Assembly: GCA_964508025.1 (NCBI GenBank) | Contig: CAZDSF010000009.1 | Coordinates: 7,310 to 71,309, forward strand | DNA: 64,000 nt | Reading direction: 5' to 3' | From: an uncultured Anaerolineales bacterium | GTDB lineage: Bacteria; Chloroflexota; Anaerolineae; B4-G1; SLSP01 | Made by a program: the position numbers and the translations under genes | Part shown: piece by piece, positions 4,568 through 64,000 of the stretch | Layout: every line of letters starts with the position of its first letter | Position numbering within the stretch: position 1 is the stretch's first letter | Notes under the pieces: generated by a model | Seen by the model: only the letters and a program-made list of their open reading frames with translations | The model's database searches: none | What the model was told of the DNA's origin: nothing

Positions 4568-4813
4568 TGTATTACGAAAGCGTTAATTTTACGTTACGGA
4601 AATTTTAATACACATCTGAGAGCCGAGGCGCCAATAACACTCAAAGCCTCGGAGTTGCGCCGCAAGGCTTCCCCAAATCTGCACACTGGGGAAAGATAAG
4701 GCCACCACAAAAGGACGCCATAAATCGCCTTGAACCATTGCGTATTCTACCCATCTTCCATCTCGAAAGATATCGAAAGGGCACCGAAAGGACACCGAAA
4801 GGACAAAGGAAAA

Positions 4814-5128
4814 ATGACGATCAAAGAGATTCAAATTGCGATTGCGGTGAGCTTGTTCGCAATGGGCCTGTGTTCTTGCATCGCGGGTCTTTGGGCGATG
4901 CTGTCGCGCCGCTACCGACAGATGCTCCACCAAATTTCGGCGCAATCCACGGTGGCGACCAGCAAGGCGCTCACCAATGTGGCGCTGGCGCCATTGGTGG
5001 ATTCGTTCACCGGTTTGGTCAATGCGATCAACGAACTGATCCGCACTTCGATTGGCGTAGGCGTTTTTCTCTGGCTAATTGGCGTAGGACTCTGCATGGC
5101 TGCCTTTTGGATGCTCTCGCTGGTGTGA
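4814..5128 (+). CDS. Small membrane protein (104 aa, 2-3 TM helices)
   Basis: Hydrophobic segments IAIAVSLFAMGLCSCIAGLWAML and IGVGVFLWLIGVGLCMAAFWMLSL; A-rich RBS. Its stop lies 6 nt before the next start. The overlapping 4738-frame reading is low-complexity (rejected). Confidence 0.55.
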   Translation: MTIKEIQIAIAVSLFAMGLCSCIAGLWAMLSRRYRQMLHQISAQSTVATSKALTNVALAPLVDSFTGLVNAINELIRTSIGVGVFLWLIGVGLCMAAFWMLSLV

Positions 5129-5133
5129 GGCGG

Positions 5134-14148: not shown

Positions 14149-15237
14149 ATGAAAACCGAAATGCTCGACAAAGCGCGTATCAAAGTGATTGGCGTTGGCG
14201 GCGCCGGCTGTAATGCCGTTGACCGCATGATCCAAATCGGAATTCCCGGCGTCACCTTCGTCGCAGCCAATACCGATACACAAGCACTCGTGCAATCAGA
14301 AGCGCCGTGCAAAATCTGTTTGGGACCGAATCTGACCCACGGACTTGGCGCCGGGGGCAACGCCGAGATCGGGCGCAGGGCGGCGCAAGAGAGCCAACGC
14401 CTGCTCGGTGAAGTGATGCAAGATACAGACATGGTCTTCATCACCGCGGGGATGGGCGGGGGAACGGGAACCGGCGCCGCACCGGTTATCGCGCGGCTGG
14501 CGCGTGAAGCCAATGCCCTGAGCATCGCCATCGTCACCCGACCCTTCGCCTTCGAAGGCCCCCGCCGCCAGGAGGCCGCGAAAGAAGGCATCGAACGGCT
14601 GCAAGAAGCGGTTGACGCCCTTATCATCGTCTCCAATGACCGGTTGCTGGAAGTGGTCAGCAAGCGCATTCCCCTGGGCATCGCCTTTCGCGTCGCCGAT
14701 GAGGTGTTAAGGCAGGGCGTGCAAGGCGTCACCGAGCTGGTCACCCATCCAGGGCTGATCAATCTCGACTTTGCTGATGTGAAGTCAGTGGTCAGCAACG
14801 CCGGCAGGACCTTGATGTCCATTGGGCACGCTGAAGGCAAAGATAAGGCGCTCGAAGCGGCGCGCATCGCAGTAGAGAATCCGCTGATGGACATCGAGAC
14901 GCTTCAGAACGCCGAGAACTTGCTGGTGAACTTCAGCGGCGGCGAAGATCTCACCCTGGCCGAGGTCAGCGAGGCCATGGATTACCTGGCCCAGACAGCC
15001 AAACCAGAAGCGCAGATCTTTTTCGGCGCAGTCATTGATCCCCATATCAAAGGCAATGTGCAGATTACGCTCATTGCGACCGGCCTGGATGCGCAATCCA
15101 ATCACCCGCCGGCCCGCACGGCAACGCGGGGCGCGCGCCGGCACACGCTGGCAGAGTTGCTGGGGGATACTTATGTCATACCGGAATCGGCCTGTCCGCG
15201 CGTGACCACACGCCAGGAGGCGCTGCACCTTGGCTGA
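14149..15237 (+). CDS. ftsZ: Cell division GTPase FtsZ
   Basis: IKVIGVGGAGCNAV, tubulin signature GMGGGTGTGAAPVIA, T7 loop NLDFADV; RBS AGAAGGGAG. The long 13972 ORF start was rejected. Confidence 0.9.
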   Translation: MKTEMLDKARIKVIGVGGAGCNAVDRMIQIGIPGVTFVAANTDTQALVQSEAPCKICLGPNLTHGLGAGGNAEIGRRAAQESQRLLGEVMQDTDMVFITAGMGGGTGTGAAPVIARLAREANALSIAIVTRPFAFEGPRRQEAAKEGIERLQEAVDALIIVSNDRLLEVVSKRIPLGIAFRVADEVLRQGVQGVTELVTHPGLINLDFADVKSVVSNAGRTLMSIGHAEGKDKALEAARIAVENPLMDIETLQNAENLLVNFSGGEDLTLAEVSEAMDYLAQTAKPEAQIFFGAVIDPHIKGNVQITLIATGLDAQSNHPPARTATRGARRHTLAELLGDTYVIPESACPRVTTRQEALHLG

Positions 15238-15475
15238 GCTGGAACCTCGTCACATTGCCCAGGCCACACGGGCGGTAATTGCGCAATTTCCGGAGATGCG
15301 CGGCGTCGAGCCAACGCTTAGCGCGCAGAGCATACCGGGTTCGCCACCCCGGCAGCACTATATCCTCACCTTTGCGCAGCAGGTGAAAGTATCGGCCCAC
15401 GAGACGCTGCAACGACGGGTGCGCGTCACCATGAACCAGGATGGCGAGATCATCAAAATCACAGCATCCAGATAA
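15230..15475 (+). CDS. Small protein (81 aa) homologous to the C-terminal domain of the C25-like peptidase
   Basis: C-terminal ...VRVTMNQDGEIIKITASR versus peptidase ...VKVTVDENGAILKAAMSR (10/18 identical), plus N-terminal similarity. Probable TTG start 10 nt after GGAGG, overlapping the ftsZ stop. Confidence 0.45.
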   Translation: MAELEPRHIAQATRAVIAQFPEMRGVEPTLSAQSIPGSPPRQHYILTFAQQVKVSAHETLQRRVRVTMNQDGEIIKITASR

Positions 15476-15531
15476 TGCGGAGATTTTCATCCTTCCGCCT
15501 TCATCATTCATCCTTTCAGAGGAGCACCCCC

Positions 15532-18500
15532 ATGACTTATCTTTCGACTCAAAATCCAGTAACCAGACCGGCGGCGACCCCTCCGTCTTTGGCCTCGAAA
15601 TCCAAAACCTTCGTGATGCCAAACAAGTTGGGCATCCACGTATTGCGCGCCACGCCAGACCTCCTGGCATTCATCGCCGCCAAACCGGCGGTGATCAAAT
15701 TCGCAGGCGATTGGGAACACGCGCAGAGCGCGCTGCCGGGTACACTGGTGATCGGGCAATTACCATCAACCGCGCAAGATGAGACGTGGCGACCCGGAGC
15801 ACAGAATCCAGAGCAGGCTGCCAGAGACTTCGTCGCCGCACACCGGGAATTCTACCAAGCCCATGCCTACATCCCCTACTGGGAAGGCCCCCATCAAATC
15901 ATACCGCGCGACCACGGCGACTTGCATTGGTATGCCCGCTTCGAAATAGAGCGGATGAACTTACTACAAACATTGGGTTTCAAATGCGTCATTGGCAACT
16001 TCGCTGTGGGCGCGCCGGAACTGGCGCTGTGGCCGGCCTTCTTGCCCGCCATCGAAGCCGGCATCCGGCGCGAAGCCCTGCTCGGCTTGCACGAATACAG
16101 CTGGCCCTGGATGTGGTGGCTAACGGGCAAATATCAGATGTTGCCCGGAGACGATCAGGAAGACGAGGGCTGGAGCACCCTGCGCTATCGCCAAGTCTAC
16201 CGGCAATACCTCCTGCCTCGAGGCCTGCAAATTCCCCTGGTCATCAGCGAATGCGGCATTGATCCAGAAGTCAAACCGCTGCTGCTCACTACCGCCGCCG
16301 GCGACTGGAACGAACCGGGAGCATATTGGGCGGGGCCGGAGCATGAAGCAGACAACGCCGCCCCCTATTTCCGACAACTGGCATGGTACGAGGCTGAATT
16401 GGGGAAAGACCCCTACGTCATAGGCATGGCAATCTCCACGTGGGGCCACTTCAACGGACAGAACAAAGATTCCAATATTGCCGACTCTCCCATCGCCGAA
16501 AAACTGCGCCAACGGGCCAAAGCCCATCCGGCGCGGCCCTTCGATTATCACAAACTCACCGGCGTACAGCCCCAGGCTGGTTATGTTCCGCCGCGCACGG
16601 CTTACCGCCGCACCTACATTCTGTTACCGCAGATCCAAGACACCTTCGAGCGCCTGGAGTGGCGCATGGCAGCCGCCATCGGCTCCTCGGTGCAACTGCG
16701 CACCCTGGGCCATTCAGCAGACGACGCCGGCGTGGGGCCAGAGGCGCGTGAAATCATCGCCGTCAATCCCCAAGCCTGGGATGCCGAGCTTCAAGCCTGG
16801 TACGAACAGCACTATCCCGGCGCCGAGTATCAGGCCCTCCAGGCATCCACCCCTTGGGAAATGGCGCTCAAACTCATACCGCCGCTGGAGGATGATATTG
16901 CACTGGCGCAGATTGATCCACGCTGGGCGGATTACAATTTCGGCGAAATCCCCTACGACACAGAGACCATCGGACGCGCCGGCTGCTTCATCACCGGCCT
17001 GGCGATGATATTACGCAAGCACTATCAACGCGACGTAACGCCGCCGGTGCTCGACAAAATCCTGGTTGCCGCGCGCGGCGCCTACGTTCAAGACAACATC
17101 CTGGTCTGGCCGGACACGATCCCACTGTTTCCCATTTTCGATCAGAGCATCAAAGATAACGTCCAACGCACCGCCGCGCAGCTCGAGGAGCTGCTGCGCA
17201 ACGGCTGGGAAATCATCCTGCGCCGGGCGGATGGCGGGCACTTCGTCTATCTGGAGAAAGTACTAGGCGACACATTACAGATCATTGATACGTGGGATGG
17301 CAAACGCAAGCGCCACACCGCCGACGCCTATCGCGGCATCCGCGCGGCGCGGTTGCGGAGAACGCCCCTGCCGGAACCCGAGCTCTCTGGGATGACGAAC
17401 ATCAGCAGCCTGACGCCGCGCGAACCTTACCGCCGCACCTATGTACTTCTGCCGCAGCTCCAGGACACCGTCGAGCAGCTGACCTGGCGCACCGCTGCCG
17501 CCATCGGCTCCGCCGAGCAGCTGTGTACCCTGGGCCACTCCGCCGATGACGCCGGCGTAGGCCCGCTGGAACGTGAAATCATCGCCGTCAATCCGCGCGC
17601 GTGGGGCAGCGACCTCAAAGCCTGGTATGATCGGCACTATCCCGCCGCGGAGTACCGGGCTATCGAGACCGAAAGCCCCTGGGAGATGGCCGTCCAGATC
17701 ATGCCGCCATTGGAAGATGACATTGCGCTCGCGCAGAAAGACCCGCGTTGGGGCCGCTACGACTTCGGCGCCGAGCCGGACCCTCACGGCGGCGCGGAGA
17801 CCATCGGGCGCTACGGGTGCTTCCTCACCGGCTTCGCCATCATCCTGCGCAAAATTTACGGGCGGGATGTCACCCCACCCTTGTTGGATAAAATCCTGGT
17901 GGCATCAGGCGTGGGCTATGTGAACGATCACTTCATGGCGTGGGAAACCGCGATCCCCATTTTCCCGGCTTTCGATGGGCATCTCAAGGACAACCTCAGT
18001 CGCTCCGCCCGTGAACTAGAACGGTTGCTGGAAGACGGCTGGGAGATCATCCTGCGCCGGGCCGATGGCGCGCACTTCGTCTACCTGGAGCGCGTGGAAG
18101 GCGACACGCTGCACATCATTGATACCTGGGACGGCCAACGCAAGCGCCACGCGGCCAGCGCCTATCGCGGCGTGCGCGCAGCGCACATCAAAGCGCGACC
18201 CAAGCGCCCTGCGCCGGCGAAAATCCTGGTGGGGCTGCACGATCTGCGCGGCGCGGAATGGATGGTCAGCCAAAAGCTACGGGGTTGCTGCCTGGTACAT
18301 TCGGTGGTGCAGCGGAAGGCAGCGCCGCTGGATTTGCGGCATCTCCAGAATGCCGGCATCACCGTGATTGCGCGACTCAACTGGGGCTACGCCGATGGCA
18401 CAGGCACGTTGCCGCGCGCCGAGCACCGGGACGCCTTTATCAACGCCGTCGCCGAGACAATCCTGAACACGCAAGGTGTGGATTACTTCCATGTGGGCAA

Positions 18501-19095
18501 CGAGCCGAACAATCGCTCCGAGTGGCCCGGCTACCGCACCGGCAATGAGTTCCCACTCACGCCGCAGTATGTAACGCAAATCTATAATGCTATATGGGAA
18601 AAAGTGGGAGGACGGGCCAAACTCGGCCCGCCGCCCATTGATCCCTACTTTGGCCCCGGCTCCAACAACCGCGATTGGTGGACGTATATACTGGATAACA
18701 TCACCGACGCGGATGCACTCTTCCTCCATGCCAAGACGCAGACGAACAACCCGGCAGAAGTTTGGTCGCGGGTGCGCTTCACGGATCACCCGCTCACGTG
18801 GCAATACCTGCACCTGCGGACAGTGGAAACCTCGTTAGCGCTGACGCCGGAGCGTTTCCGCGATTTGCCGGTCTTTGTGACGGAACTCAACCCGCAATGT
18901 GTGGACACCATCGGGGGCAACATCGGTTGGCTGGCAGATAACGCCAGGTGGGTTCACGAAGCCCTGCGCTATTTTCGGCAAGAGCAACCGGTCAACGGGG
19001 TGGTGTTCTACCGCTACGAACGCGCAGGGGATCAAACGCCTTTCGGGTTGGAAGCCATGCCCACAGTGCTGGCAGCGATCAAGAAAGAAGCGTGA
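15532..19095 (+). CDS. Multidomain putative cell-wall hydrolase: GH-A-clan TIM barrel + 2x peptidase C39-like domains + second GH-A-clan TIM barrel
   Basis: N- and C-terminal domains are mutually homologous and carry GH-A signatures (GNFAVGAPE/LHEYSW/VISECGID versus VGNEPNN/LFLHAKT/VFVTELNPQ). The middle holds two ~275-aa repeats with the Cys motif ETIGRAGCFITGLAMIL and the His motif DGGHFVYL, typical of C39-like papain-fold peptidases. Confidence 0.6.
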   Translation: MTYLSTQNPVTRPAATPPSLASKSKTFVMPNKLGIHVLRATPDLLAFIAAKPAVIKFAGDWEHAQSALPGTLVIGQLPSTAQDETWRPGAQNPEQAARDFVAAHREFYQAHAYIPYWEGPHQIIPRDHGDLHWYARFEIERMNLLQTLGFKCVIGNFAVGAPELALWPAFLPAIEAGIRREALLGLHEYSWPWMWWLTGKYQMLPGDDQEDEGWSTLRYRQVYRQYLLPRGLQIPLVISECGIDPEVKPLLLTTAAGDWNEPGAYWAGPEHEADNAAPYFRQLAWYEAELGKDPYVIGMAISTWGHFNGQNKDSNIADSPIAEKLRQRAKAHPARPFDYHKLTGVQPQAGYVPPRTAYRRTYILLPQIQDTFERLEWRMAAAIGSSVQLRTLGHSADDAGVGPEAREIIAVNPQAWDAELQAWYEQHYPGAEYQALQASTPWEMALKLIPPLEDDIALAQIDPRWADYNFGEIPYDTETIGRAGCFITGLAMILRKHYQRDVTPPVLDKILVAARGAYVQDNILVWPDTIPLFPIFDQSIKDNVQRTAAQLEELLRNGWEIILRRADGGHFVYLEKVLGDTLQIIDTWDGKRKRHTADAYRGIRAARLRRTPLPEPELSGMTNISSLTPREPYRRTYVLLPQLQDTVEQLTWRTAAAIGSAEQLCTLGHSADDAGVGPLEREIIAVNPRAWGSDLKAWYDRHYPAAEYRAIETESPWEMAVQIMPPLEDDIALAQKDPRWGRYDFGAEPDPHGGAETIGRYGCFLTGFAIILRKIYGRDVTPPLLDKILVASGVGYVNDHFMAWETAIPIFPAFDGHLKDNLSRSARELERLLEDGWEIILRRADGAHFVYLERVEGDTLHIIDTWDGQRKRHAASAYRGVRAAHIKARPKRPAPAKILVGLHDLRGAEWMVSQKLRGCCLVHSVVQRKAAPLDLRHLQNAGITVIARLNWGYADGTGTLPRAEHRDAFINAVAETILNTQGVDYFHVGNEPNNRSEWPGYRTGNEFPLTPQYVTQIYNAIWEKVGGRAKLGPPPIDPYFGPGSNNRDWWTYILDNITDADALFLHAKTQTNNPAEVWSRVRFTDHPLTWQYLHLRTVETSLALTPERFRDLPVFVTELNPQCVDTIGGNIGWLADNARWVHEALRYFRQEQPVNGVVFYRYERAGDQTPFGLEAMPTVLAAIKKEA
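16603..18252 (+). repeat. Intragenic tandem duplication (2 x 825 bp, ~65% aa identity) encoding two C39-like peptidase modules
   Basis: Identical 17-mers CTTACCGCCGCACCTAC at 16601 and 17426. The amino-acid repeats start YRRTYILLPQIQDT and YRRTYVLLPQLQDT and end ...DTWDGKRKRH and ...DTWDGQRKRH. Confidence 0.8.
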
Positions 19096-32175: not shown

Positions 32176-32189
32176 CCGAAAGAATGACA

Positions 32190-32286
32190 ATAGTTCGTAG
32201 AGCATCGTGAGCCGTGAGCCGTTCACCACGCGCAGACTGGGCTCTACTCACGGCTGACCCACTACTATTTCAGGGAGGTTACACAA
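32190..32286 (+). promoter_or_regulatory. Copy A of a recurrent structured 5' leader element (see findings)
   Basis: TAGTTCGTAGAGCATCGTGAGCCG...CTCTACTCACGGCTGACCCACTACTATTTCAGGGAGG, immediately before the ATG at 32287. Confidence 0.5.
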
Positions 32287-35325: not shown

Positions 35326-35420
35326 AGCCTTTCCCTCCTCTGAAAATCCTCTGAAAATAGTAATGGGTGAGCAGAGAGCCGTAAGTAGTGAGCAGGTTTT
35401 GCCAACCTCGACTGCTCTCT
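35326..35420 (-). promoter_or_regulatory. Copy B of the recurrent 5' leader element
   Basis: The reverse complement reads ...GTAGAGAGCAGAGAGCAG...CTCACTACTTACGGCTCTCTGCTCACCCATTACTATTTTCAGAGG..., directly upstream of the asnS start. Confidence 0.5.
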
Positions 35421-35460
35421 GCTCTCTACGCACTCTTTTCGGCTGTATCGCCGGGCACAC

Positions 35461-37127: not shown

Positions 37128-38357
37128 ATGAGTTGGAACGTCGAGGAAATTCGCCGCGAGTTCCCAATCCTACAACAACCGGTACATGGCAAGCGCCTGG
37201 TCTTCCTGGATAGCGCTGCTAGCGCCCAGAAGCCCCGCGCGGTGATCGAGGCGATCACTTCGGTGTACACCACGGCGTATGCCAACGTTCACCGGGGCTT
37301 GTACAGCCTGGCAGAGGCCGCGACCGAGCGTTACGAGGCGGCGCGGGAAAAGATCGCGCACTTTATCGGGACCCCTGATCCCGGCGAGATCATCTATGTC
37401 CGCAACGCCACCGAGGCGCTGAACCTGGTCGCCTACGCCTGGGGCCGGCATCACATTGGGGCCGGCGACCGTATCATCATTACCGAAATGGAGCATCACA
37501 GCAACCTGGTGCCTTGGATGCAGTTGGCGCAGGAACGAGATGCTGAACTGGCATATCTGCCGGTGACGGATGCGGGCGAGCTAGATCTCGCGGCGTTGCC
37601 GCCGCTGCTGGCGGATGGACGCGCGCGCCTGGTCGCCTTCACGCTGATGTCGAACGTGCTGGGGACGATTCCGCCCGCGCGCGAGCTCATCGCCCAGGCG
37701 CGACAAGCGGGAGCGATGGTGGTAGTGGATGGCGCACAGGCGGTACCGCACATACCGGTGAATGTGCAGGCATTGGGCGCGGATTTCCTGGCGATTTCGG
37801 CGCACAAACTTGGCGGGCCGGGCATCGGCGCGCTATGGGGTCGCCGGAAGCTGCTGGAAGCGATGTCGCCATTCCTCTTCGGCGGGGATATGATCCTCAG
37901 CGTGAAGAAGCACAGCGTCAGCTGGAATGATCTGCCCTACAAATTCGAGGCGGGGACGCCGGCCATCGCTGAAGCAGTGGGCTTTGGAGCGGCGGTGGAT
38001 TTTCTCTCCGCGCTGGGAATGGAAGCCGTGCAACAGCATGAACAAGCGTTGGTCGCCTACGCGCTGGAACAGCTGCCGGAGATACCGGGGCTGCACATTC
38101 TCGGGCCAACCCAATCACAACGTCGCGGCGGCGCGGTCTCGTTCTGGCTGGAAGGCATTCACCCGCACGATATCGCCTCAGTGCTAGATGCAGAAGGCGT
38201 CTGCATCCGCGCCGGGTTGCACTGCGCCGAGCCGTTACACGCCCGTTTTGGCCTGCCCGCCAGCGCGCGGGCAAGTTTCTACATTTACAACGACACAGAT
38301 GATGTAGACGCGCTGATCGCGGGGCTACATCGCGTGATCAAACTACTGCGGCGCTAA
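37128..38357 (+). CDS. sufS: Cysteine desulfurase SufS (class V aminotransferase)
   Basis: PLP-lysine context SAHKLGGPGIG and active-site loop RAGLHCAEPLHARFG. Confidence 0.85.
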   Translation: MSWNVEEIRREFPILQQPVHGKRLVFLDSAASAQKPRAVIEAITSVYTTAYANVHRGLYSLAEAATERYEAAREKIAHFIGTPDPGEIIYVRNATEALNLVAYAWGRHHIGAGDRIIITEMEHHSNLVPWMQLAQERDAELAYLPVTDAGELDLAALPPLLADGRARLVAFTLMSNVLGTIPPARELIAQARQAGAMVVVDGAQAVPHIPVNVQALGADFLAISAHKLGGPGIGALWGRRKLLEAMSPFLFGGDMILSVKKHSVSWNDLPYKFEAGTPAIAEAVGFGAAVDFLSALGMEAVQQHEQALVAYALEQLPEIPGLHILGPTQSQRRGGAVSFWLEGIHPHDIASVLDAEGVCIRAGLHCAEPLHARFGLPASARASFYIYNDTDDVDALIAGLHRVIKLLRR

Positions 38358-46341: not shown

Positions 46342-46436
46342 AAAGTAGTGAGTAGCGAGCGGTTCGCATTGCCTAAACTGCTCACTACTCACGGCTCACC
46401 CATTACTACCATATTTAAGAGGAAATAGGAAACATC
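46342..46436 (+). promoter_or_regulatory. Copy C of the recurrent 5' leader element
   Basis: AGTAGTGAGTAGCGAGCGG...CTGCTCACTACTCACGGCTCACCCATTACTACCATATTTAAGAGG, before the ATG at 46437. Confidence 0.5.
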
Positions 46437-47891: not shown

Positions 47892-47917
47892 ATTCCGACT
47901 GCTTGCAAATAACGAAC

Positions 47918-48002
47918 ATAGTTCGTAGAGAGCAGTGAGCCGTTGCGGCGCCGGAACTACTCACTGCTCACCGCTCACCCATTACTACTTTGAGGAGGAA
48001 CC
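47918..48002 (+). promoter_or_regulatory. Copy D of the recurrent 5' leader element
   Basis: TAGTTCGTAGAGAGCAGTGAGCCGTTGCGGCGCCGGAACTACTCACTGCTCACCGCTCACCCATTACTACTTTGAGGAGG, before the ATG at 48003. Confidence 0.5.
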
Positions 48003-49190: not shown

Positions 49191-49223
49191 CCCCAGACAA
49201 CAAATCGTGAACAACGCTGGCAA

Positions 49224-49628
49224 TTGAAGTTCAGTCTGCCTTCGGATATACTGAAGGTGGAGGCGCATATCATGGAAACACAAGCACCGCTGAAAACTGT
49301 AGCGCCCCCTGCCTTGATCCGTGAAATGGCAGATGTAGTGTCGCAAGAAGTGCAGCCTGAAGCCATTGTCCTTTTTGGCTCACACGCCACCGGACAAGCA
49401 CGGCCAGATTCAGATGTGGATTTGCTGGTGATCGAAACGGAACCTTTTGGGGAACACCGCGACCGTCGCCAGGAAATGGCCCGGCTGTAGCGGGTATTGG
49501 CGCGATTTATGGTTGCCAAAGACATTCTGATCTACAGCCGGGACGAGGTAGAACGATGGCGCAATACGCGCAATCACATTATCGCGCGGGCTTTGCGTGA
49601 GGGGAAAGTGCTGTATGGACAAGTATGA
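49224..49628 (+). pseudogene. MNT-type minimal nucleotidyltransferase (TA antitoxin-like) interrupted by an in-frame TAG at 49488-49490
   Basis: N-part LFGSHATGQARPDSDVDLLV (GS...D.D NTase motif). The reading frame continues after the TAG (RVLARFMVAKDILIYSRDEVERWRNTRNH...) to TGA at 49626. Confidence 0.6.
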
Positions 49629-49663
49629 TGATGGTCGGGATGAAGCACAACTAAGCCGCTGAA

Positions 49664-49702
49664 ACAACAAACGACCATGCAACAGGCATGGTCGTTTGTT
49701 GT
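49664..49702. terminator. Perfect 17-bp-stem hairpin between the convergent MNT gene and vapC
   Basis: ACAACAAACGACCATGC-aacag-GCATGGTCGTTTGTTGT. Confidence 0.55.
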
Positions 49703-49717
49703 GGAAGTTTCCCGATA

Positions 49718-50176
49718 CTACTGGTTTAGTATCCAATCCTCCAATAGCACAACCGTAAGTTCCGATGCCAGCCGCACAAGGCCCCGATCGTTGGTGATAA
49801 AAGCCGTTGCGCCCCAGCTCAGCGCCGTTGCGGCTTGCAACGCATCTGCCGGGCGTAATCGGTATAGGGCGCGCAGCCGGGGCGCCTGTTGCGCCACCCC
49901 GCGATGCACGTCTACCAGGGCGAGGTTAGGAAAGCGTGTTAGCACGGCCTCGTAATGTCGCGCGATGTGTGGTTGGTGTAGCTGCCACGGCCGCACGGTC
50001 AGCTCCACCAAAGTCACGGTTGAGGTGCAGGCTATCCAGCGACCTTGCTCGATGCCCTTGAACAATGCTTGCGTCAGTGCTGCATAGCGCGGGTGCTGCT
50101 CCAGGTGATAGATGAACGCGGTAGTATCGAGACCTACCCGCGTGTGGGCGCTCAAGGCGTCGGTAAGGCTTCCCAT
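49718..50176 (-). CDS. vapC: PIN-domain toxin (VapC-like)
   Basis: GLDTTAFIYHLE (Asp1), DALQAATAL, AFITND (PIN acidic residues); overlaps the upstream antitoxin gene. Confidence 0.75.
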   Translation of the reverse strand: MGSLTDALSAHTRVGLDTTAFIYHLEQHPRYAALTQALFKGIEQGRWIACTSTVTLVELTVRPWQLHQPHIARHYEAVLTRFPNLALVDVHRGVAQQAPRLRALYRLRPADALQAATALSWGATAFITNDRGLVRLASELTVVLLEDWILNQ

Positions 50177-50497: not shown

Positions 50498-50537
50498 TGT
50501 ACTGCCAAAACTGGTAGGATGCAACCATCACAGATAA

Positions 50538-50577
50538 CAAAAATCCCCTCAGCCGTGATATCTCAAGGGCTGAGGGG
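50538..50577 (-). terminator. Rho-independent terminator of the RAMP operon (hairpin CCCCTCAGCC...GGCTGAGGGG + TTTTT on the minus strand)
   Basis: The stem-loop is followed by a T-run when read on the minus strand. Confidence 0.6.
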
Positions 50578-50623: not shown

Positions 50624-51655
50624 TCACCGCAGCCGGAACGTCCCGCACCCATAGTGCGTGAAATGCCCCACATGCAAGATCGAAGCGAGCTCCAGGTACG
50701 GGATGAGGTTCTGCGGGATGGGCGCAGCAAAGGTCTGCTCCCCGATCCACGCGCCATACGCGCCGACGGGCGGCTGCTCGAACTTGTGCTTCTTGTGCTG
50801 CTGCGATTGCTCGCGGAGCTGATTGAGCGTCTCCCATAGCGCGGTCTGCTCCGCGGCGGGCAGCAATGCCCACGCTTCATCTTCGCTGATGGGCTTGCCC
50901 GATTGCAGCTGCGCCACCCGCGCCATCAGTGCGCGCAGCAGCCCTTCGAGCGTGGGGACATCGTGCTTGGCGATGGTGCACTTGCGCTGCGGCTCGCGCT
51001 CCAACGGGCGCTCCGGCTTGATGCGCATATCGAACGGCGTGAGCCAGGTGAGCGTTTGCAAGCGAGCATGGCCCTCCGGCGCAAACGCCCACCCTTCAGC
51101 CCACTGCGCGGGGGTGGGGCGGCGGCGGCGCAGATCGAGCTTGCCATCCACCACGAAGGGCCGCCAGCGCGGGCCATGCGCCGCATAAATCGCCTCGATG
51201 CGGAACTGCCCCCAGAAGCCTTTGCTCTCGCCCGCCTGCGGCTGCGTCGCCGCGAGCTCCAGCGCGGGCAACAGCTGCTCCAGGAACAGCCCGTGATCCG
51301 CCGCATCGCCGAGCAGCTTCAGCTCCCACACCACCGGCTCGTTCAGGCCAAAGGTATCCTTCACCGTGTACGGCAACAGCACCGCCTCGATAGGCCAGGG
51401 CGACGTGGGGATGTTGGTGAGCAGGAAATCCTCTTGCGGCGCAGCTTTCGCTTGCGGCCCGAACTCGCGCTCCCACAGTTCCCGCGTCTTGCGCCATTTG
51501 CCGGCCTCGCGCGTGGGCAACATTCCTGCGACGAGTTCGCCCCACACCGCCGAGAGCTCCCGCGTAAAGTTCGGCGCGAGCGTTACCAGGCTGTGCTGTG
51601 TGCGCGCCACAATCAGATAGCGAATCAGGTTGATGGGTTCAGTAAAATTTAACAT
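50624..51655 (-). CDS. RAMP-like protein (Cas6/Cas5-like), 343 aa
   Basis: The C-terminus ends in a glycine-rich loop VGHFTHYGCGTFRLR, the position and form seen in Cas6/Cas5 RAMPs. Translationally coupled (17-nt overlap) to the upstream gene. Confidence 0.4.
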   Translation of the reverse strand: MLNFTEPINLIRYLIVARTQHSLVTLAPNFTRELSAVWGELVAGMLPTREAGKWRKTRELWEREFGPQAKAAPQEDFLLTNIPTSPWPIEAVLLPYTVKDTFGLNEPVVWELKLLGDAADHGLFLEQLLPALELAATQPQAGESKGFWGQFRIEAIYAAHGPRWRPFVVDGKLDLRRRRPTPAQWAEGWAFAPEGHARLQTLTWLTPFDMRIKPERPLEREPQRKCTIAKHDVPTLEGLLRALMARVAQLQSGKPISEDEAWALLPAAEQTALWETLNQLREQSQQHKKHKFEQPPVGAYGAWIGEQTFAAPIPQNLIPYLELASILHVGHFTHYGCGTFRLR

Positions 51656-52505
51656 AATCGCTCAACCGGTAGAGCAGTTCCACTTGCGCCTTCGACCAAC
51701 GGCGGATGCGCCAGGCGTTCAGCATATCCCGCACTTCGGGCTTGATCTGCCCCAGGAAGCGTCCCCAGTAGAACTGCGCCTCGGCGTCGTCGCGCAGCTT
51801 GAGCAGCTCGCGTAGTGCGGCTTGCTCATCGGGCAAGAGCAGCGTGCGGAAAATCGCAGCCATTTCCAGCGTGCTGAGGAAATCCGCCAGCTCGAAGGTT
51901 AACACACCCTCGCGGTCGAACTCTTGCAAGTGGTAGATATAGTGCGGGGCGGCCAGGAAGCGCACGCGCAGGCGATCCGGCGGGAAGCGCGCCTCGTGAT
52001 GGGTCACGCGGATCAGCAACTCATTCATGGGCGTGTGTTTGCCGCTGCTGCCGGGGAAGATTTGGAGCAGCCCCTTGAGCTCTGCGCCGTTGTAGAGCGC
52101 GAGCTCCTGGAGCCAGGGTTGCAGCTGCTTTTGCGGCAATACGGCGAGGAAATGCTGCGCATCGTGAACGTAGATGCGCAGCGTGGTCCCGGCGGGGAAC
52201 GGCGAGCCGCCGCGCAGCTGGCGCGGCAGTTGCGTCACATAGCCCCAGACCAGCGTGACCTGCCGCGCGTGCAGGTAGAGCTGATGCCCCCAGTTCAGGA
52301 TGGTCTTGCAGACTTCGCAGAAGCGTTGTTTTTCCAGGCGCGGATACAGGCCGCAGCGCGCACACGGTTGGTGCAACGCCGAGCGCGGCGGCGCGAGCTC
52401 CCCGCCGCTGGCGGGGAGCTCGGGATGGGCCTCGATGTAGTGTAGCGTCGCCAGCAGCTCCGCGCCGCTACGCGACAAGCGAATCCAATCAAAGGGTTCC
52501 AACAT
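51639..52505 (-). CDS. Hypothetical protein with a CxxC...CxxC zinc ribbon (CARCGLYPRLEKQRFCEVC), ~289 aa
   Basis: ORF lying between the two RAMP genes; 17-nt overlaps at both ends. Confidence 0.45.
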   Translation of the reverse strand: MLEPFDWIRLSRSGAELLATLHYIEAHPELPASGGELAPPRSALHQPCARCGLYPRLEKQRFCEVCKTILNWGHQLYLHARQVTLVWGYVTQLPRQLRGGSPFPAGTTLRIYVHDAQHFLAVLPQKQLQPWLQELALYNGAELKGLLQIFPGSSGKHTPMNELLIRVTHHEARFPPDRLRVRFLAAPHYIYHLQEFDREGVLTFELADFLSTLEMAAIFRTLLLPDEQAALRELLKLRDDAEAQFYWGRFLGQIKPEVRDMLNAWRIRRWSKAQVELLYRLSDYVKFY

Positions 52506-55500
52506 CCAAGGCCTTCTGTAGCTCGACGTAGTGGGCAATGGCGCGCGGCTTGATCCAATCGCCGGTGGTGAGCGGCTGCTGCCAGGTGGCCGGCTCGCCG
52601 CCTGCGTACCGCTTCGACCAATCAATCAAGTAACTCTCCGGCAGGATGTTCAGGCGCAGGCTGCCGAAGCCCAGATAGCGATGGTGGCCCAGCTTGTGCG
52701 CCAGTCCCGGCTCCAGGGCGATGCTCCAGATCAGCCGTTGCAGTTCCACATCCTCCAGATTCCAGAAGCGCACGGTAAAGCGCGCCTTCGCGCCGGGCAG
52801 AATGGCGCGGAAATAGCTGGCTTGCGCCGTATCCGGCGCGAAGCTCTCCAGGGTTTTGGCGATGGGGGCCAGCGGGGCGTGTTGGAACACCCGCCACGTC
52901 TTGGCAATCTGATGGCGCGGGATGGACTTGCCGGTCTCTTGCAGCCACTTTCCCTGTCCCGGCGCGTACAGCCAGCCGGTGTAGGGGTACGGGACCTTGT
53001 ACCACGCCAGCTCCGGCGCAGCATCGAACAACCCAAAGCCGATGACCACGCGCCCCATGAGCGATTGGTTCGTGCCTTTACCTACCCAGCCGAAGAGCGC
53101 ATCCGCCGGGTTGAGCTGGGTGATGTGCGCGCTCTCCTGCGCCGAATCGCTGGCGATGGCGTAGAGGTGGCGGATCATGCCGCGCAGGCTCTTGGCGGGC
53201 AGCGCGTAGGCACGCTCCGCATCGCGGTGGGCGGCCTCCGGCGGGGACATCGAGAAGAAGTCCCAGCCGTTCACCGGGCCATCGGGCAGGCTGGCGCGCT
53301 GCGATGGTTCGCCGCTCTCGCGGATATGCAGCGGCGTGAGCACTTCCGCCTCCACCACGAGCGTCCCGCAGTGACCGCCGAAGGCGCGGTGCGAGACGTA
53401 GCCCTCTTTAGCGGTGGGTGGGACTTGCGCCGAACGGCGCAGCGCGAGCGGCTCGCGGGCGGTCAGCACGGCGGCGGCGGCTGCCCCTTCCAGCTGCAAA
53501 CCCTGCCACGCGCCCTCCGCGTGTACCGCGCGCTCGCCGAACAACGCCTGGGTCATCCCCGCCGGGTTTCCGGTCAACCAGCTGAGCGCCGCAATCTCGG
53601 CCTCAACCCACCCGAAGCCGCTGGTCTTCTCGCCGCCGATGACGATCTCGCCGTTCTGGAAATCCTGTAACAGGTGAAAGAACACCGTGAGCGCGGGCAT
53701 ATCGTCGGGGCGCAAATCCTGCAAATCCAGTTGCATGCGGAACTTGAGCGCCTCGCCGTAAGCGAAGAGGTAATCCGACTTGGCCGCCTCGATGGGCTGG
53801 CCCGTTGCGGGATTCATGCGCACGCCGTCCATCGAGCACCAGGCTTTGGCCGGATCAATCGGGTCGGCCAGGTACGCATCGGAGAAGTAGATCAACCCCG
53901 TTTGCCCCTGCCGCCCAAACAGCAAATCCAGCACGCCCTCGATCTTCTTGGGGTCGCTTTCCAGCGTTTTGAGGATTTGGGACGCGCGGCGGCGGAAGGC
54001 CCCCTTGATGGTGCTGCCCGGCACATAGACTTCCCACGCGCCCTCGCTGCGGTTGGAGGGCGACCAGGTCAGCATCCGCATGAAGACGGTATCGTAGGGT
54101 TTGCCGTACTTGCGCGAGACTTCGCGGTTGAACGGGCCGCCGCTGCGGAAATCCACATGATACGGCTGCGAGAGCTCCTGGCGGGCCTTATCGCGGTAAT
54201 CCTGCAAGAACGCGATGAAGTTGCGGTCGTTGGTGATGCTCTTGCGCAGATTGCGCGCATCGGTCATGTGGCGGTAGCGCACGCGGCGGTGCTCATCCTT
54301 GAAGGTCTGCCACGCCTGCGTGCCCACGCCCTGCGGCGGCGTGCGGCTTTCCCAATCGGCTTCCCTGATTTTGCCCTCCAACAGCATGATTTTGATGTTG
54401 AGATGGGCCTCGCGGTTGGCGATTTCGGCATCAATCCAGGCGTCGCTTTGCAGCAGGTTGACCTGCTGATCCACTTGCTGGTGCAGGCGGGGTAGGATGG
54501 CGGCGCACGCGGGTTTGAGCAGCGCGATGAGCGCGGCTTCGTCGCCCAGCGCCGGCGTGATTTGCGCCTCTAACGCGGGATCGAAGCCCAACGTCTCAGC
54601 TACTTGCGCCCACACATCGGCGGGCAGCGCGTGGCGCGTCTCGCGCTGTGACTCCATCGCCTTGACCAGCCGCCCGGCCATGTTGGCCTTATCGCCCAAC
54701 GCTTCGACAAACGCGGCTTCGGCGGCTTCCTGGCTGGGAAAGGACTTAGCGCACAAGGGCCGCGCCGCGCTGATGACAGCTTTGGCGAGCGCGAACTTGC
54801 CCTTGCTGAGCTTATCGAGCGCTTTTTCCGGCAACACCCACATTTCGACCTCGCCGCTGCCCTGTTCTTGCAGCCAGATAGCGAGCGTGCGCGGCAGATA
54901 CTCGCCCAGCTTGCGCTTCCAGTCATCGGCGTTGAGGATGGGGCCGCCCAGCACCATCTCCAGGCGTTGGCGGATAGCGGCGGGCAGGTCGCGCATCGCC
55001 GCGACAAGCAGCCGCCCTTCGACAGCGGCAAATGAGGGCGTGTCGGGATCAATTTTGCCCCAGTTCCAGCCCACCAGCACCGGGTTGGCCGCATCGAAGG
55101 TTAGCTCGATGTGCAAATGGTTGACATCGGGGTGGATTTTGGGCAGCGCCTTGGGTTTGGGCAGCGGCGTCTCCAGCTCCAGGCGGAGGCGGCCCAGGCC
55201 CTTGCTCTTGCCCGCGCCGAACCAGAAGCGGCCCGCTTCCAGCTCTTGCAGCAGATAGTAGAGCTGCGCCGCGTTTTGGCCCTTGGCAAGCGCATTGTCA
55301 TCCACGTGCAACTCGAAATCGAAGACCGCATTGCGGAAAACGGTCTCCATCTTGTAGTTGGCATTGGCTTCAGCCGACCAGCGATCCTCATCGAGCTTCA
55401 AGCCCATGCGCATATCGAAGAAATGCTCGCGGGTATAGGCGGTTTTGTTGAGTTCACACGTCACCCGCGTGATGAGATTGTTGGGCATGACGCTATCGTA

Positions 55501-55713
55501 CAAACGACGCCACAGCCGGTTAAGCAGGCCAATATTGCGCCCGTCCGCCGTCCCGCCGATGAACGCATCCATCAGCGATTGCGCCGTCCCGCCAATTTCA
55601 CCGGCCAGCGAGACCAAGCGCTGTGTGCCGTCGCCATCGCGGGTAAACAGCGTCTTGCGGGCATTCCCACGGTAAATGGGGGATTCTGCGATCAAACGTC
55701 CTTTGATCAGCAT
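52489..55713 (-). CDS. Triple-RAMP (Cas7-like x3) fusion protein with a ~360-aa helical insertion (1074 aa); gRAMP/Cas7-11-like architecture, no CRISPR array nearby
   Basis: Domain 1 (res 3-180): IKGRLIAESPIYRGNA and G-loop FGAGKSKGLGRLRLE. Domain 2 (res 545-710): VYVPGSTIKGAFRRR, LLFGRQGQTGLIYFSDAYL, G-loop IGGEKTSGFGWVE. Domain 3 (res 783-1025): TLVVEAEVLTPLHI, LPAKSLRGMIRHL, ALFGWVGKG...VVIGFG, G-loop GHHRYLGFGSLRLN. Confidence 0.6.
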   Translation of the reverse strand: MLIKGRLIAESPIYRGNARKTLFTRDGDGTQRLVSLAGEIGGTAQSLMDAFIGGTADGRNIGLLNRLWRRLYDSVMPNNLITRVTCELNKTAYTREHFFDMRMGLKLDEDRWSAEANANYKMETVFRNAVFDFELHVDDNALAKGQNAAQLYYLLQELEAGRFWFGAGKSKGLGRLRLELETPLPKPKALPKIHPDVNHLHIELTFDAANPVLVGWNWGKIDPDTPSFAAVEGRLLVAAMRDLPAAIRQRLEMVLGGPILNADDWKRKLGEYLPRTLAIWLQEQGSGEVEMWVLPEKALDKLSKGKFALAKAVISAARPLCAKSFPSQEAAEAAFVEALGDKANMAGRLVKAMESQRETRHALPADVWAQVAETLGFDPALEAQITPALGDEAALIALLKPACAAILPRLHQQVDQQVNLLQSDAWIDAEIANREAHLNIKIMLLEGKIREADWESRTPPQGVGTQAWQTFKDEHRRVRYRHMTDARNLRKSITNDRNFIAFLQDYRDKARQELSQPYHVDFRSGGPFNREVSRKYGKPYDTVFMRMLTWSPSNRSEGAWEVYVPGSTIKGAFRRRASQILKTLESDPKKIEGVLDLLFGRQGQTGLIYFSDAYLADPIDPAKAWCSMDGVRMNPATGQPIEAAKSDYLFAYGEALKFRMQLDLQDLRPDDMPALTVFFHLLQDFQNGEIVIGGEKTSGFGWVEAEIAALSWLTGNPAGMTQALFGERAVHAEGAWQGLQLEGAAAAAVLTAREPLALRRSAQVPPTAKEGYVSHRAFGGHCGTLVVEAEVLTPLHIRESGEPSQRASLPDGPVNGWDFFSMSPPEAAHRDAERAYALPAKSLRGMIRHLYAIASDSAQESAHITQLNPADALFGWVGKGTNQSLMGRVVIGFGLFDAAPELAWYKVPYPYTGWLYAPGQGKWLQETGKSIPRHQIAKTWRVFQHAPLAPIAKTLESFAPDTAQASYFRAILPGAKARFTVRFWNLEDVELQRLIWSIALEPGLAHKLGHHRYLGFGSLRLNILPESYLIDWSKRYAGGEPATWQQPLTTGDWIKPRAIAHYVELQKALDVGTL

Positions 55714-55756
55714 CGGGTTCCTCCTTAGATGTCAGAAAATCAATCACGATACTGCA

Positions 55757-55785
55757 ATTATATCGGAGATAAAGAAGATAGACAA
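55757..55785 (-). promoter_or_regulatory. Sigma70-like promoter TTGTCT-N17-TATAAT for the RAMP operon
   Basis: Minus-strand read ...TTGTCTATCTTCTTTATCTCCGATATAATTGCAG...; ~40 nt upstream of the RBS AAGGAGG. Confidence 0.45.
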
Positions 55786-63312: not shown

Positions 63313-63423
63313 AGAGTTGTGCGCAGGCGCCCATTTCCTCACCGTTTATGGTTTCCCACATCATCTTTAGCGGTCGTTGCATTTCTACGATTTTCATTTA
63401 TAATCAAGCATAGATATATTTGA

Positions 63424-63777
63424 ATGTATCAACCCACAAGGAACTCCATGCCCGCTATCACCGAAGAAGAAGCCGTTTTGCTGCATCGCTACATCTGCGA
63501 AGGGGTGGGCGATCCCAAGCGCCTGCGCCTGCTCTACCTGGTTGCTGAACACCCCTGCAAAGTCTCCGATCTCACGGAACTGCTGGGCGTTGCCCAGCCC
63601 ACCGTCTCCCATCACCTGCGCATCCTGCGCGACCGGGGCCTGGTAGAGGCGCGCAAGGAAGGGACGACGGTGTATTACTCCCTCAGCCATCCCCGCATCC
63701 TCGAAGCCCTGGATATGATGCGCGCTATCGTGGCGCAGTTCTTGGCGGAGGGAGCGCAAGTATTGAGTAATTCGTAA
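63424..63777 (+). CDS. ArsR/SmtB-family transcriptional regulator
   Basis: KRLRLLYLVAEHPCKVSDLTELLGVAQPTVSHHLRILRDRGLV (winged HTH). The start may be the M at 63448. Confidence 0.8.
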   Translation: MYQPTRNSMPAITEEEAVLLHRYICEGVGDPKRLRLLYLVAEHPCKVSDLTELLGVAQPTVSHHLRILRDRGLVEARKEGTTVYYSLSHPRILEALDMMRAIVAQFLAEGAQVLSNS

Positions 63778-63916
63778 TGCGTACTGCGTAATGCGTACTG
63801 CGTAATGGGCAGAATCCCGCCCTATCGCTTTCTCGCTGACTCGTTGATTCGCTGATTTGCTGATTTTTTGATTTGCTGATTTTTTGATTTGCTGATTTTT
63901 TGATTTGCTGATTTTA
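63774..63916. repeat. Tandem repeats: 14-bp unit GTAATGCGTACTGC x2.5 (63774-63808) and 16-bp unit TGATTTGCTGATTTTT x4 (63853-63916)
   Basis: Read directly from the sequence. Located between the arsR stop and the next gene's RBS. Confidence 0.85.
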
Positions 63917-63929
63917 TCGGGAGGACACA

Positions 63930-64000
63930 ATGGCTAAACTGTCTGAAGCACAAACAACCTGGTTGGAAGGCGTCTTTGGCGACCGCTTCACCACCCGCCC
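63930..64000 (+). CDS. 5' end of a gene (MAKLSEAQTTWLEGVFGDRFTTR...), truncated by the window edge
   Basis: RBS GGGAGG 7 nt upstream of the ATG. Confidence 0.4.
   Translation, partial: MAKLSEAQTTWLEGVFGDRFTTR

Follow-up and report, generated by a model that had tools for sequence, protein, structure and literature searches.

What does a compact operon of RAMP proteins do in a stretch of DNA that holds no CRISPR array? The operon lies in a 64-kb window (the whole stretch analysed) of a Chloroflexota (Anaerolineales-like) chromosome. Judged by its sequence, it is the effector module of subtype III-I, composed of Cas7-11i, a stripped-down Cas10 and Cas6; this rare subtype was already described in November 2025 (Makarova et al. 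2025, PMC12669027) and is covered by curated NCBIfam models. The III-I assignment held when those models were re-examined. We consider it very probable that this intact, expressed-looking cassette is a crRNA-guided RNase that would draw on arrays elsewhere and act without cyclic-nucleotide signalling. Literature searches found no experimental study of any III-I system. The operon comprises the following elements.

55757..55785, minus strand: predicted sigma-70-like promoter, TTGTCT-17 nt-TATAAT (consensus scan, 10/12 matches)
55720..55726, minus strand: Shine-Dalgarno sequence AAGGAGG, read directly, 6 nt before the cas7-11i ATG
52489..55713, minus strand: cas7-11i, 1074 aa, type III-I gRAMP effector (NCBIfam, Pfam, Foldseek)
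51639..52505, minus strand: cas10i, 288 aa, Cas10 remnant (Zn finger, palm-like domain, C-terminal helical domain)
50624..51655, minus strand: cas6i, 343 aa, predicted Cas6-family pre-crRNA endoribonuclease (NCBIfam, Pfam, PADLOC)
50536..50577, minus strand: putative intrinsic-terminator-like hairpin CCCCTCAGCC-13 nt-GGCTGAGGGG, then ATTTTTGTT, read directly

An earlier note on this DNA had given the operon its own promoter and terminator, and both can be read in the sequence, their roles being predicted; its other sequence-level statements (ORFs, motifs, absence of an array) were likewise borne out by direct reading and scans. The terminator-like element is a 10-bp hairpin plus T-run that our terminator scan missed solely because the loop is longer than 8 nt. 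At both gene junctions there is a 17-nt overlap, with overlapping stop and start codons, and this is kept in relatives. The 288 aa of cas10i are counted from an ATG (the mechanical TTG ORF begins at 52625), and a public gene call identical to this version exists (P0001).

The largest protein carries the identification. NCBIfam NF049957 matches Cas7-11i at 1804 bits (cutoff 800), with residues 1-1072 on profile positions 1-1074 of 1076. Profile searches confirmed the RAMP/Cas7 similarity that had been read from motifs, far above chance: Pfam RAMPs matches at 2e-18 (best stretch residues 562-704) and PADLOC Csm3/Cas7_IIId in three separate regions. The separate Csm3, Cas7_IIId and RAMPs matches, at about residues 94-181, 557-712 and 789-1038, indicate three Cas7 domains. 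Three G-rich loops (residues 166-176, 693-703 and 1009-1019) and three PGSxxKG-type motifs are read in the sequence; motif positions include VYVPGSTIKGAFRRR at 562-576 and LPAKSLRGMIRHL at 838-850. The protein divides as follows.

55144..55713, minus strand: Cas7 domain 1, about aa 1-190, boundaries approximate; D26/D28 in a TRDGDG loop; G-rich loop GAGKSKGLGRL
54106..55017, minus strand: helical insertion, aa 233-536, putative Cas11 domain (AF2 model)
53569..54105, minus strand: Cas7 domain 2 core, about aa 537-715; D541; VYVPGSTIKG motif; G-rich loop GGEKTSGFGWV
52594..53376, minus strand: Cas7 domain 3, about aa 780-1040; D818 (GWDFF); LPAKSLRG motif; G-rich loop GHHRYLGFGSL

Domain 1 is matched by PADLOC Cas7_IIId/Csm3 (residues 94-181), domain 2 by PADLOC Csm3 (563-712) and, in a PDB sequence search, by III-D Cas7-2x (8s9t_D, over 557-726), and domain 3 by TIGR03986 and the III-E gRAMP model (963-1037) and by PDB Cas7-11 chains 7zol_B/7yn9_A (940-1038). 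The insertion sits after strand beta-1 of domain 2 (aa about 198-232) and is modelled by AF2 as almost wholly helical, with pLDDT mostly 70-85. Its assignment as Cas11 comes from PMC12669027; Cas11 models (PADLOC, E<=10) gave no sequence match within aa 233-536. Each Cas7 domain has an invariant Asp preceding its PGSxxKG-type motif, and by this position D26/D28, D541 and D818, at least 98% conserved among 139 distinct homologs, are the predicted catalytic residues. They were placed by motif position and not by structure because the model is moderately confident (pLDDT 66) and its segments of low confidence include the catalytic loops. With that model, Foldseek gave III-E Cas7-11/gRAMP proteins and Cas7 fusions of III-D as its top 47 matches, E reaching 3.9e-15. 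Profiles, AF2 and Foldseek agree with the earlier description of one polypeptide in which three Cas7 domains are fused and a helical stretch is inserted, akin to III-E and III-D forms but smaller.

The middle gene is an extremely diverged Cas10, reduced to a Zn finger, one palm-like domain and a C-terminal helical domain. It lacks the HD domain, the N-terminal cyclase domain and the GGDD motif; its four-Cys site is invariant in the Cas10i family, and its best fold match is the Cas10 of III-Dv. The CxxC...CxxC pattern on which it had been called a Zn-ribbon protein is present, but the protein is Cas10i and not a generic one, and because of this the earlier statement that the window has no cas10 is false. 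The third protein had been taken as Cas6-like, which three models uphold: NCBIfam NF049959 covers residues 3-210 at 245 bits (its cutoff is 160), Pfam CRISPR_Cas6 covers residues 228-339 at 29.3 bits (cutoff 25), and PADLOC Cas6 matches at 6.7e-12. Its C-terminus carries VGHFTHYGCGTFRL; invariant in Cas6i homologs are H121, H328, H334, R12, K99 and the C-terminal G-rich loop, which is present here.

Set against the III-I exemplar of Desulfonema magnum (Cas7-11i WP_207677910, Cas10i WP_207677911; locus L062, 58-59% identity to Cas7-11i), the cassette shows no difference of substance: the D. magnum genes are separated by gaps of about 400 and 230 nt where ours overlap by 17 nt, and the Phd-PIN neighbour is a feature of this copy. 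The III-E effector Cas7-11e/gRAMP (Craspase; PDB 7zol, 7x7a, 8d1v) is likewise one polypeptide of several Cas7 domains, and its Cas11-like insertion has a putative counterpart in the helical insertion here; it supplies the best structural matches and the sequence similarity in the last Cas7 domain, and crRNA-guided RNA cleavage by Cas7 aspartates is predicted here too. However, the full-length III-E chains found by PDB sequence search have four Cas7 domains and a large insertion in roughly 1600-1800 aa, against three domains in 1074 aa. III-E also has neither a Cas10 nor a Cas6 as a separate protein and acts together with the TPR-CHAT protease Csx29, whereas here Cas10i and Cas6i are obligatory and strictly linked, and there is no linked protease or further partner. 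Membership in III-E was rejected, NF041225 giving 49 bits against a cutoff of 700 over residues 966-1023 alone. III-I arose independently of III-E, from a different III-D variant (PMC12669027).

The likeness to III-D2 and III-Dv (Cas7-2x; PDB 8s9t) lies in the fusion of three (or two) Cas7 domains and in a Cas6 in the locus, with III-Dv chains 8s9t_D/E as sequence and fold matches of Cas7-11i. III-D2 consists of Cas7x3, Cas7-5, Cas10, CorA, a VapBC-like TA and Cas6; its full-length Cas10 makes SAM-AMP, and it has a Cas7-Cas5 fusion subunit and a CorA effector (PMC13294483). The full-length Cas10, the Cas7-Cas5 fusion and CorA are all absent here, and the VapC-type TA pair that happens to adjoin this copy, though reminiscent of III-D2, is not a III-I family trait. 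III-D (D1/Dv/D2) was rejected: Cas10i has 288 aa and no GGDD, TIGR03986 reaches 103 bits against a cutoff of 161, Csx10 and Csm/Cmr models fall far under their cutoffs, and the window has no further cas genes. Type IV (Csf) was rejected as well, its Cas7 model matching weakly (2e-8, against 5e-27 for the Csm3 type) and no Csf1, Csf3 or DinG being found in the window.

We searched the window for a CRISPR array by TRF, a repeat finder, a custom detector with positive control and Rfam, and found none; cas1/cas2 and a Cas5-like subunit were also not found, nor any other Cas family in a PADLOC scan of the 35 other ORFs. The operon is flanked by housekeeping genes, apgM and thrC on one side and kbl, MFS and tdh on the other. 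The two TA modules reported beside it become one and a half: the Phd-PIN pair adjoins the cassette, but the neighbouring MNT gene stands alone and is a pseudogene, broken by an in-frame stop. Only two other PIN genes occur among 131 short ORFs neighbouring III-I cassettes. With housekeeping neighbours and TA adjacency sporadic across the family, the proposed defence-island context is weak.

None of 160 related loci, with 1.4 Mb of flanks, has an array, including the 35 flanked by 5 kb or more on each side, so the lack of one is not peculiar to this locus. The 64-kb scans and these loci bear out a self-contained operon without array or adaptation genes, but not an orphan state special to it. 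The only genes conserved across the 160 loci are the three of the cassette; no adaptation, accessory or TA gene recurs nearby, no neighbour is conserved in 161 neighbourhoods, and no conserved non-coding element able to encode an alternative guide was found flanking the cassette. Of the genome loci, 79/80 and 76/80 keep the gene order cas7-11i, cas10i, cas6i. The nearest relative (L003/L083) has 91.5% nucleotide identity only from the Shine-Dalgarno sequence (from 55726 exactly) to the stop codon, and its cassette lies in an unrelated context. In a syntenic sister strain (L168), whose contig also has no array, a 1625-nt deletion has taken out the -10 box together with the 5′ half of cas7-11i (523 codons), and cas6i is frameshifted besides. 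We infer that the three genes travel from genome to genome with nothing else attached, and that the cassette is easily lost. That sister strains tolerate its loss counts against the proposed function.

The most likely functional reading is that of a trans-array RAMP effector, which the earlier note had listed among several possibilities. Cas6i would cut pre-crRNA from CRISPR arrays elsewhere in the genome, a crRNA step that is wholly conjectural; Cas7-11i would bind the mature crRNA, Cas10i serving as a non-catalytic large subunit; and the complex would pair with complementary RNA and use the Cas7 aspartates to cleave it at as many as three positions, spaced by about 6 nt. Since Cas10i can make neither cyclic oligoadenylate nor SAM-AMP, and a CARF, SAVED, CorA or protease partner is not linked, the output is probably confined to target-RNA cleavage. 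In the defining paper, too, crRNA-guided target-RNA cleavage by III-I is a prediction (PMC12669027). Against this scheme counts that no guide RNA source is visible in the window. The absence from the locus of a Cas5-like subunit, which would hold the crRNA 5′ tag, counts against it as well.

It is improbable that III-I never uses CRISPR arrays and instead works with non-CRISPR RNA or guide-free, in host RNA regulation or another defence. Each related locus retains its own Cas6 with no array in its sequenced flanks and no adaptation gene nearby, surroundings are housekeeping both here and in L083, and the subtype's authors borrowed a III-E crRNA to model the complex (PMC12669027). However, loci lacking an array are frequent in III-B, III-C, III-E and III-F, and these subtypes are believed to draw on trans arrays (PMC12669027, Extended Data Fig. 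2), the exemplar host D. magnum has CRISPR arrays of a III-E system (PMC12669027), and no conserved non-coding element beside the cassette could encode another guide. The scattered occurrence of the cassette among phyla, its transfer as one unit and its quick decay in sister strains also mark a defence gene set rather than a housekeeping regulator. Because Cas6 is kept at every locus while array, adaptation gene and partner are lacking from all 160, III-I may nevertheless load non-CRISPR guides; its array independence, through Cas6i-cut guides from non-CRISPR transcripts or obligatory piracy of crRNAs of unrelated types as a mobile 'satellite' RNA-targeting effector, is an outside chance, though a shade better than the one above.

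If the operon were the decaying rest of a once larger type III locus, stripped of its array and other subunits, the missing array, cas1/cas2 and Cas5 would also be accounted for, and this view gains from the damaged cassette of same-lineage sister strains and the adjacent MNT pseudogene. This copy gives such a remnant no support: its three ORFs are intact, with promoter, Shine-Dalgarno sequence and terminator, every catalytic and ligand residue that is invariant in the family is retained, and dN/dS of 0.07-0.12 indicates purifying selection. The three genes are moreover the complete conserved form in more than 130 loci of several phyla, not a fragment, and we hold this reading very unlikely. 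Least credible of all is that the window ends just short of a canonical type III locus complete with array and further cas genes. The promoter side has just 8.2 kb in the window, and the public contig with the exact proteins is 82.5 kb long, so about 18 kb lies outside; yet neither the 50 kb on one flank nor the 8 kb on the opposite one contains another cas gene or an array, the directly flanking genes are housekeeping, and neither the syntenic sister contig nor the 35 well-flanked relatives offer an array.

Preferring the trans-array effector, we regard the locus as a typical III-I member and no new kind of system, whose automatic annotation is to be expected from current NCBI models. That a rare CRISPR architecture can be recognised from raw sequence is illustrated by the earlier note. 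For programmable RNA targeting, the pairing of a Cas7-11-like protein of 1074 aa with a partner of 288 aa offers a compact candidate. For the family, the survey, with no arrays in 160 loci, no partners, bare-unit transfer and rapid sister-strain decay, sharpens the question of where III-I guide RNA originates.

The three minus-strand ORFs almost certainly make up an effector cassette of CRISPR-Cas subtype III-I. The cassette and the signals around it are as follows.

55785-55757, minus strand: promoter-like TTGTCT-17-TATAAT, a sequence match
55726-55720, minus strand: SD sequence AAGGAGG, read from the sequence
55713-52489, minus strand: cas7-11i ORF, 1074 aa
52625 or 52505-51639, minus strand: cas10i ORF, with a mechanical TTG start at 52625 and an ATG at 52505
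51655-50624, minus strand: cas6i ORF, 343 aa
50577-50536, minus strand: GC-rich hairpin of 10 bp followed by a T-run, read from the sequence

Among NCBIfam profiles, Cas7-11i matches NF049957 (type III-I gRAMP effector) over its full length at 1804 bits (cutoff 800), Cas10i matches NF049958, also over its full length, at 403 bits (cutoff 175), and Cas6i matches NF049959 (type III-I Cas6) at 245 bits (cutoff 160). Pfam places RAMPs in Cas7-11i and CRISPR_Cas6 in the C-terminal half of Cas6i; the Csm3/Cas7_IIId models of PADLOC match three separate regions of Cas7-11i, and its Cas6 model matches Cas6i. An earlier note, made from the sequence alone, had read an orphan operon of a triple Cas7-like fusion and two smaller proteins here; the RAMP/Cas7 and Cas6 similarity that it proposed is found with all three profile collections. 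The ATG at 52505 was taken as the cas10i start because the NCBIfam profile begins at residue 41 of the TTG ORF, and a 288-aa gene call identical to this Cas10i is present in public data (P0001). With that start there is a 17-nt overlap at both gene junctions, a geometry that is the same in relatives.

The predicted model of Cas7-11i is moderate (pLDDT 66), its low-confidence segments being loops expected to touch RNA. The 47 structures that Foldseek ranks best against it are all III-E Cas7-11/gRAMP or III-D fused Cas7 subunits (top E-value 3.9e-15), the structural kinship that had been anticipated, and the earlier reading of the architecture was largely right. A sequence search of the PDB with Cas10i found nothing; in the fold search that followed, its best match is the Cas10 of III-Dv. 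Catalytic aspartates of the Csm3 type, established for Csm3/Cmr4, sit ahead of a PGSxxKG-type motif. Across 139 distinct, aligned homologs of Cas7-11i, D26/D28, D541 and D818 are invariant, each lying 10-25 residues before the PGSxxKG-type motif of its domain; because this is the position of the Csm3-type aspartates, we regard them as putative catalytic residues. All defining features of III-I that were tested were found in the window apart from the Cas11 assignment, the helical insertion of Cas7-11i (residues 233-536) matching no Cas11 model at the sequence level.

The cassette is a kind of system already known. Its predicted action is like that of III-E, yet it is not a III-E member: the window protein scores 49 bits with the III-E model, whose cutoff is 700, it has three Cas7 domains where III-E has four, and the locus has Cas10i and Cas6i and lacks Csx29. 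Nor is it III-D2, because the full-length Cas10, Cas7-5 and CorA of that subtype (PMC13294483) are absent from the window locus.

No CRISPR array was found in the 64-kb window by TRF, a repeat finder, Rfam or our own k-mer/extension detector, which recovered a synthetic 4-repeat control. A III-E-type repeat 3′ end gave 0 matches at ≤2 mismatches, and PADLOC found no Cas family in 35 further window ORFs. The claim that the window holds no CRISPR repeats thus stands, as do the quoted motifs, all present in the three ORFs, and the original observation as a whole (ORFs, motifs, signals and an array-free 64 kb). Tandem repeats of 7-, 8- and 16-nt units (GTAATGC; TGATTTGC/TGATTTTT) at the window end (63760-63916) were rejected as an array; they lie inside a mechanical minus-strand ORF (63394-63930) and would encode a K/S/N/Q-rich repetitive N-terminus.

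We assembled 160 related loci, 80 each from genomes representing species and from metagenomes, including the Desulfonema magnum exemplar (L062). Their hosts are mainly Anaerolineae/Chloroflexota and Desulfobacterota, with a few Gammaproteobacteria, Gemmatimonadota and others. An array was found near none of the 160 in 1.41 Mb of flanking sequence, which extends at least 3 kb on both sides in 47 loci and at least 5 kb in 35. Since an assembly may break at an array, all two-copy repeats were listed as well, those at contig edges included; on reading, none was a credible array. The rejected candidates were a perfect 63-nt tandem repeat of about 10 identical units without unique spacers in L062 (5967-6609, 3.4 kb upstream of cas7-11i), a coding acidic repeat (L011), a 40-nt head-to-tail repeat at a contig end (L116), a two-copy palindrome (L146/L154), and an apparent two-repeat mini-array in two related loci (L017 5465-5550, L088 5330-5415) whose 28-nt repeat is followed by an imperfect inverted copy and then by a second copy of the repeat, a hairpin element situated directly after cas6i. 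L062 also carries a G-rich GGGGCGA-type repeat (14602-14700) in its cas10i-cas6i gap, where in most other loci the genes overlap. The orphan state is therefore a family property; the earlier note was right that the operon has no array in the window, and the state is not peculiar to this locus. The available text of the defining paper contains no explicit statement that III-I arrays are absent family-wide, although for its model of the III-I complex it took a crRNA from the III-E system that the same organism carries, and it describes loci without arrays as usual in several type III subtypes (PMC12669027).

Cas10i follows Cas7-11i in 79/80 genome loci and Cas6i does so in 76/80, the exceptions being contig ends. 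When all neighbouring ORFs of 161 neighbourhoods were clustered, the only conserved families were Cas7-11i, Cas10i and Cas6i, the next commonest occurring at 9 loci of a single clade; no conserved accessory gene adjoins the cassette in this set. RtcA (8 loci) and RtcB/archease (L083, a close relative described below) would be suggestive partners for an RNA-cutting system and were rejected as single clades with shared synteny. No 10- or 12-mer of the flanks is common to more than six loci. Searches of IMG/VR viral contigs, PLSDB plasmids and phage genomes gave no hit to the cassette, and neither in the window nor in L083 does an integrase or transposase adjoin it.

The surroundings in the window are as follows.

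One flank of the cassette: tdh-like dehydrogenase, MFS transporter and kbl-type aminotransferase (housekeeping)
Other flank: cofactor-independent phosphoglycerate mutase, threonine synthase and aldo-keto reductases (housekeeping)
49224-49628, plus strand: MNT-type nucleotidyltransferase gene with one in-frame stop (49488-49490) and no HEPN partner

Of the two adjoining toxin-antitoxin (TA) modules proposed earlier, the Phd-PIN pair is present, directly downstream of the cassette; the MNT gene is solitary and, because of its stop and missing partner, is probably a pseudogene. L168, a syntenic sister strain, has 161 unrelated nt in place of the whole 537-nt stretch around it (49192-49728). A TA association as in III-D2 was rejected, since 131 short neighbouring ORFs include just two other PIN genes and one HepT/MNT; TA genes beside the III-I cassette are sporadic across the family.

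Several other observations concern the window at large. An element of about 90-110 nt, made up of GTTCGTAGAG, a long hairpin and CTCACGGCTCACCCATTACTAC in that order, is dispersed at 32176-32286, 46342-46436 and 47892-48002, with a weak fourth copy at 35405-35443. Three different plus-strand genes (those for a 532-aa protein, the MFS transporter and kbl) have it immediately before their SD and ATG. Compared with shuffled sequences, two copies fold far better (z -4.0 and -2.9), Rfam gives no match, and L168 has a 1.44-kb insertion with a 438-aa gene exactly at the copy at 46343-46433. There is a very large plus-strand ORF of 2386 aa (4738-11898), and one of 1206 aa (15475-19095, plus strand) has two pairs of internal direct repeats, each repeat about 300 nt long, with a spacing of 825-834 nt (16589-18089). 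PADLOC matched other window ORFs to homing-endonuclease, PrimPol, mad3/mad8, AbiLi and PDC models (E-values 1e-6 to 1e-20), and also to SspA/DndA, most likely a SufS-type cysteine desulfurase at 37128-38357.

The nearest relative is an Anaerolineales MAG (L003/L083), whose 91.5% nucleotide identity is confined to window 55726-50622 (L003 8207-13308; L083 9988-15089), starting exactly at the SD and stopping 2 nt past the cas6i stop codon. Nothing in its flanks aligns to the window: neither promoter nor terminator nor any flanking gene is related, and the L083 cassette is set among different housekeeping genes with no integrase. What was transferred or relocated is thus the three genes as a bare unit. 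Between window and relative, dN/dS is 0.12 for cas7-11i and 0.07 for cas10i. In L168 (ENA ERZ16299677 NODE_1469), whose flanks are 94-95.5% identical, a clean 1625-nt deletion of window 55769-54145 (L168 8362) takes out the -10 box and the SD together with the first 523 codons of cas7-11i, so that 530 aa are left, and cas6i is frameshifted near codon 162 into 167 + 175 aa. The remnant is slightly more diverged than the flanks (92.7%). Cas7-11i remnants of 528-530 aa form 8/10 members of a 90%-identity protein cluster. The window allele of this accessory cassette is thus intact while close relatives are losing theirs, a pattern typical of defence genes.

We infer a trans-crRNA RNase, a mechanism that we consider somewhat favoured. 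Cas6i would process pre-crRNA from arrays elsewhere, Cas7-11i and Cas10i would bind the crRNA, and complementary RNA would be cut at up to three sites via the Cas7 aspartates, presumably with no second-messenger branch. What the analysis shows directly is which parts are present and which residues are conserved, that a cyclase or HD domain and linked signalling effectors are lacking, and that the genes are under selection. Taken as a whole, III-I membership plus this mechanism is a very probable explanation. An array-independent or exapted role would also accord with the missing arrays, and we think it unlikely. Decay in the sister strain might suggest a dead remnant, an improbable reading that is contradicted for the window copy by its intact genes and low dN/dS. 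That a canonical type III locus lies just outside the window seems highly improbable. Read as a III-I effector, the cassette represents a rare and compact system, and the point worth pursuit is that arrays are absent family-wide although Cas6 is obligatory.
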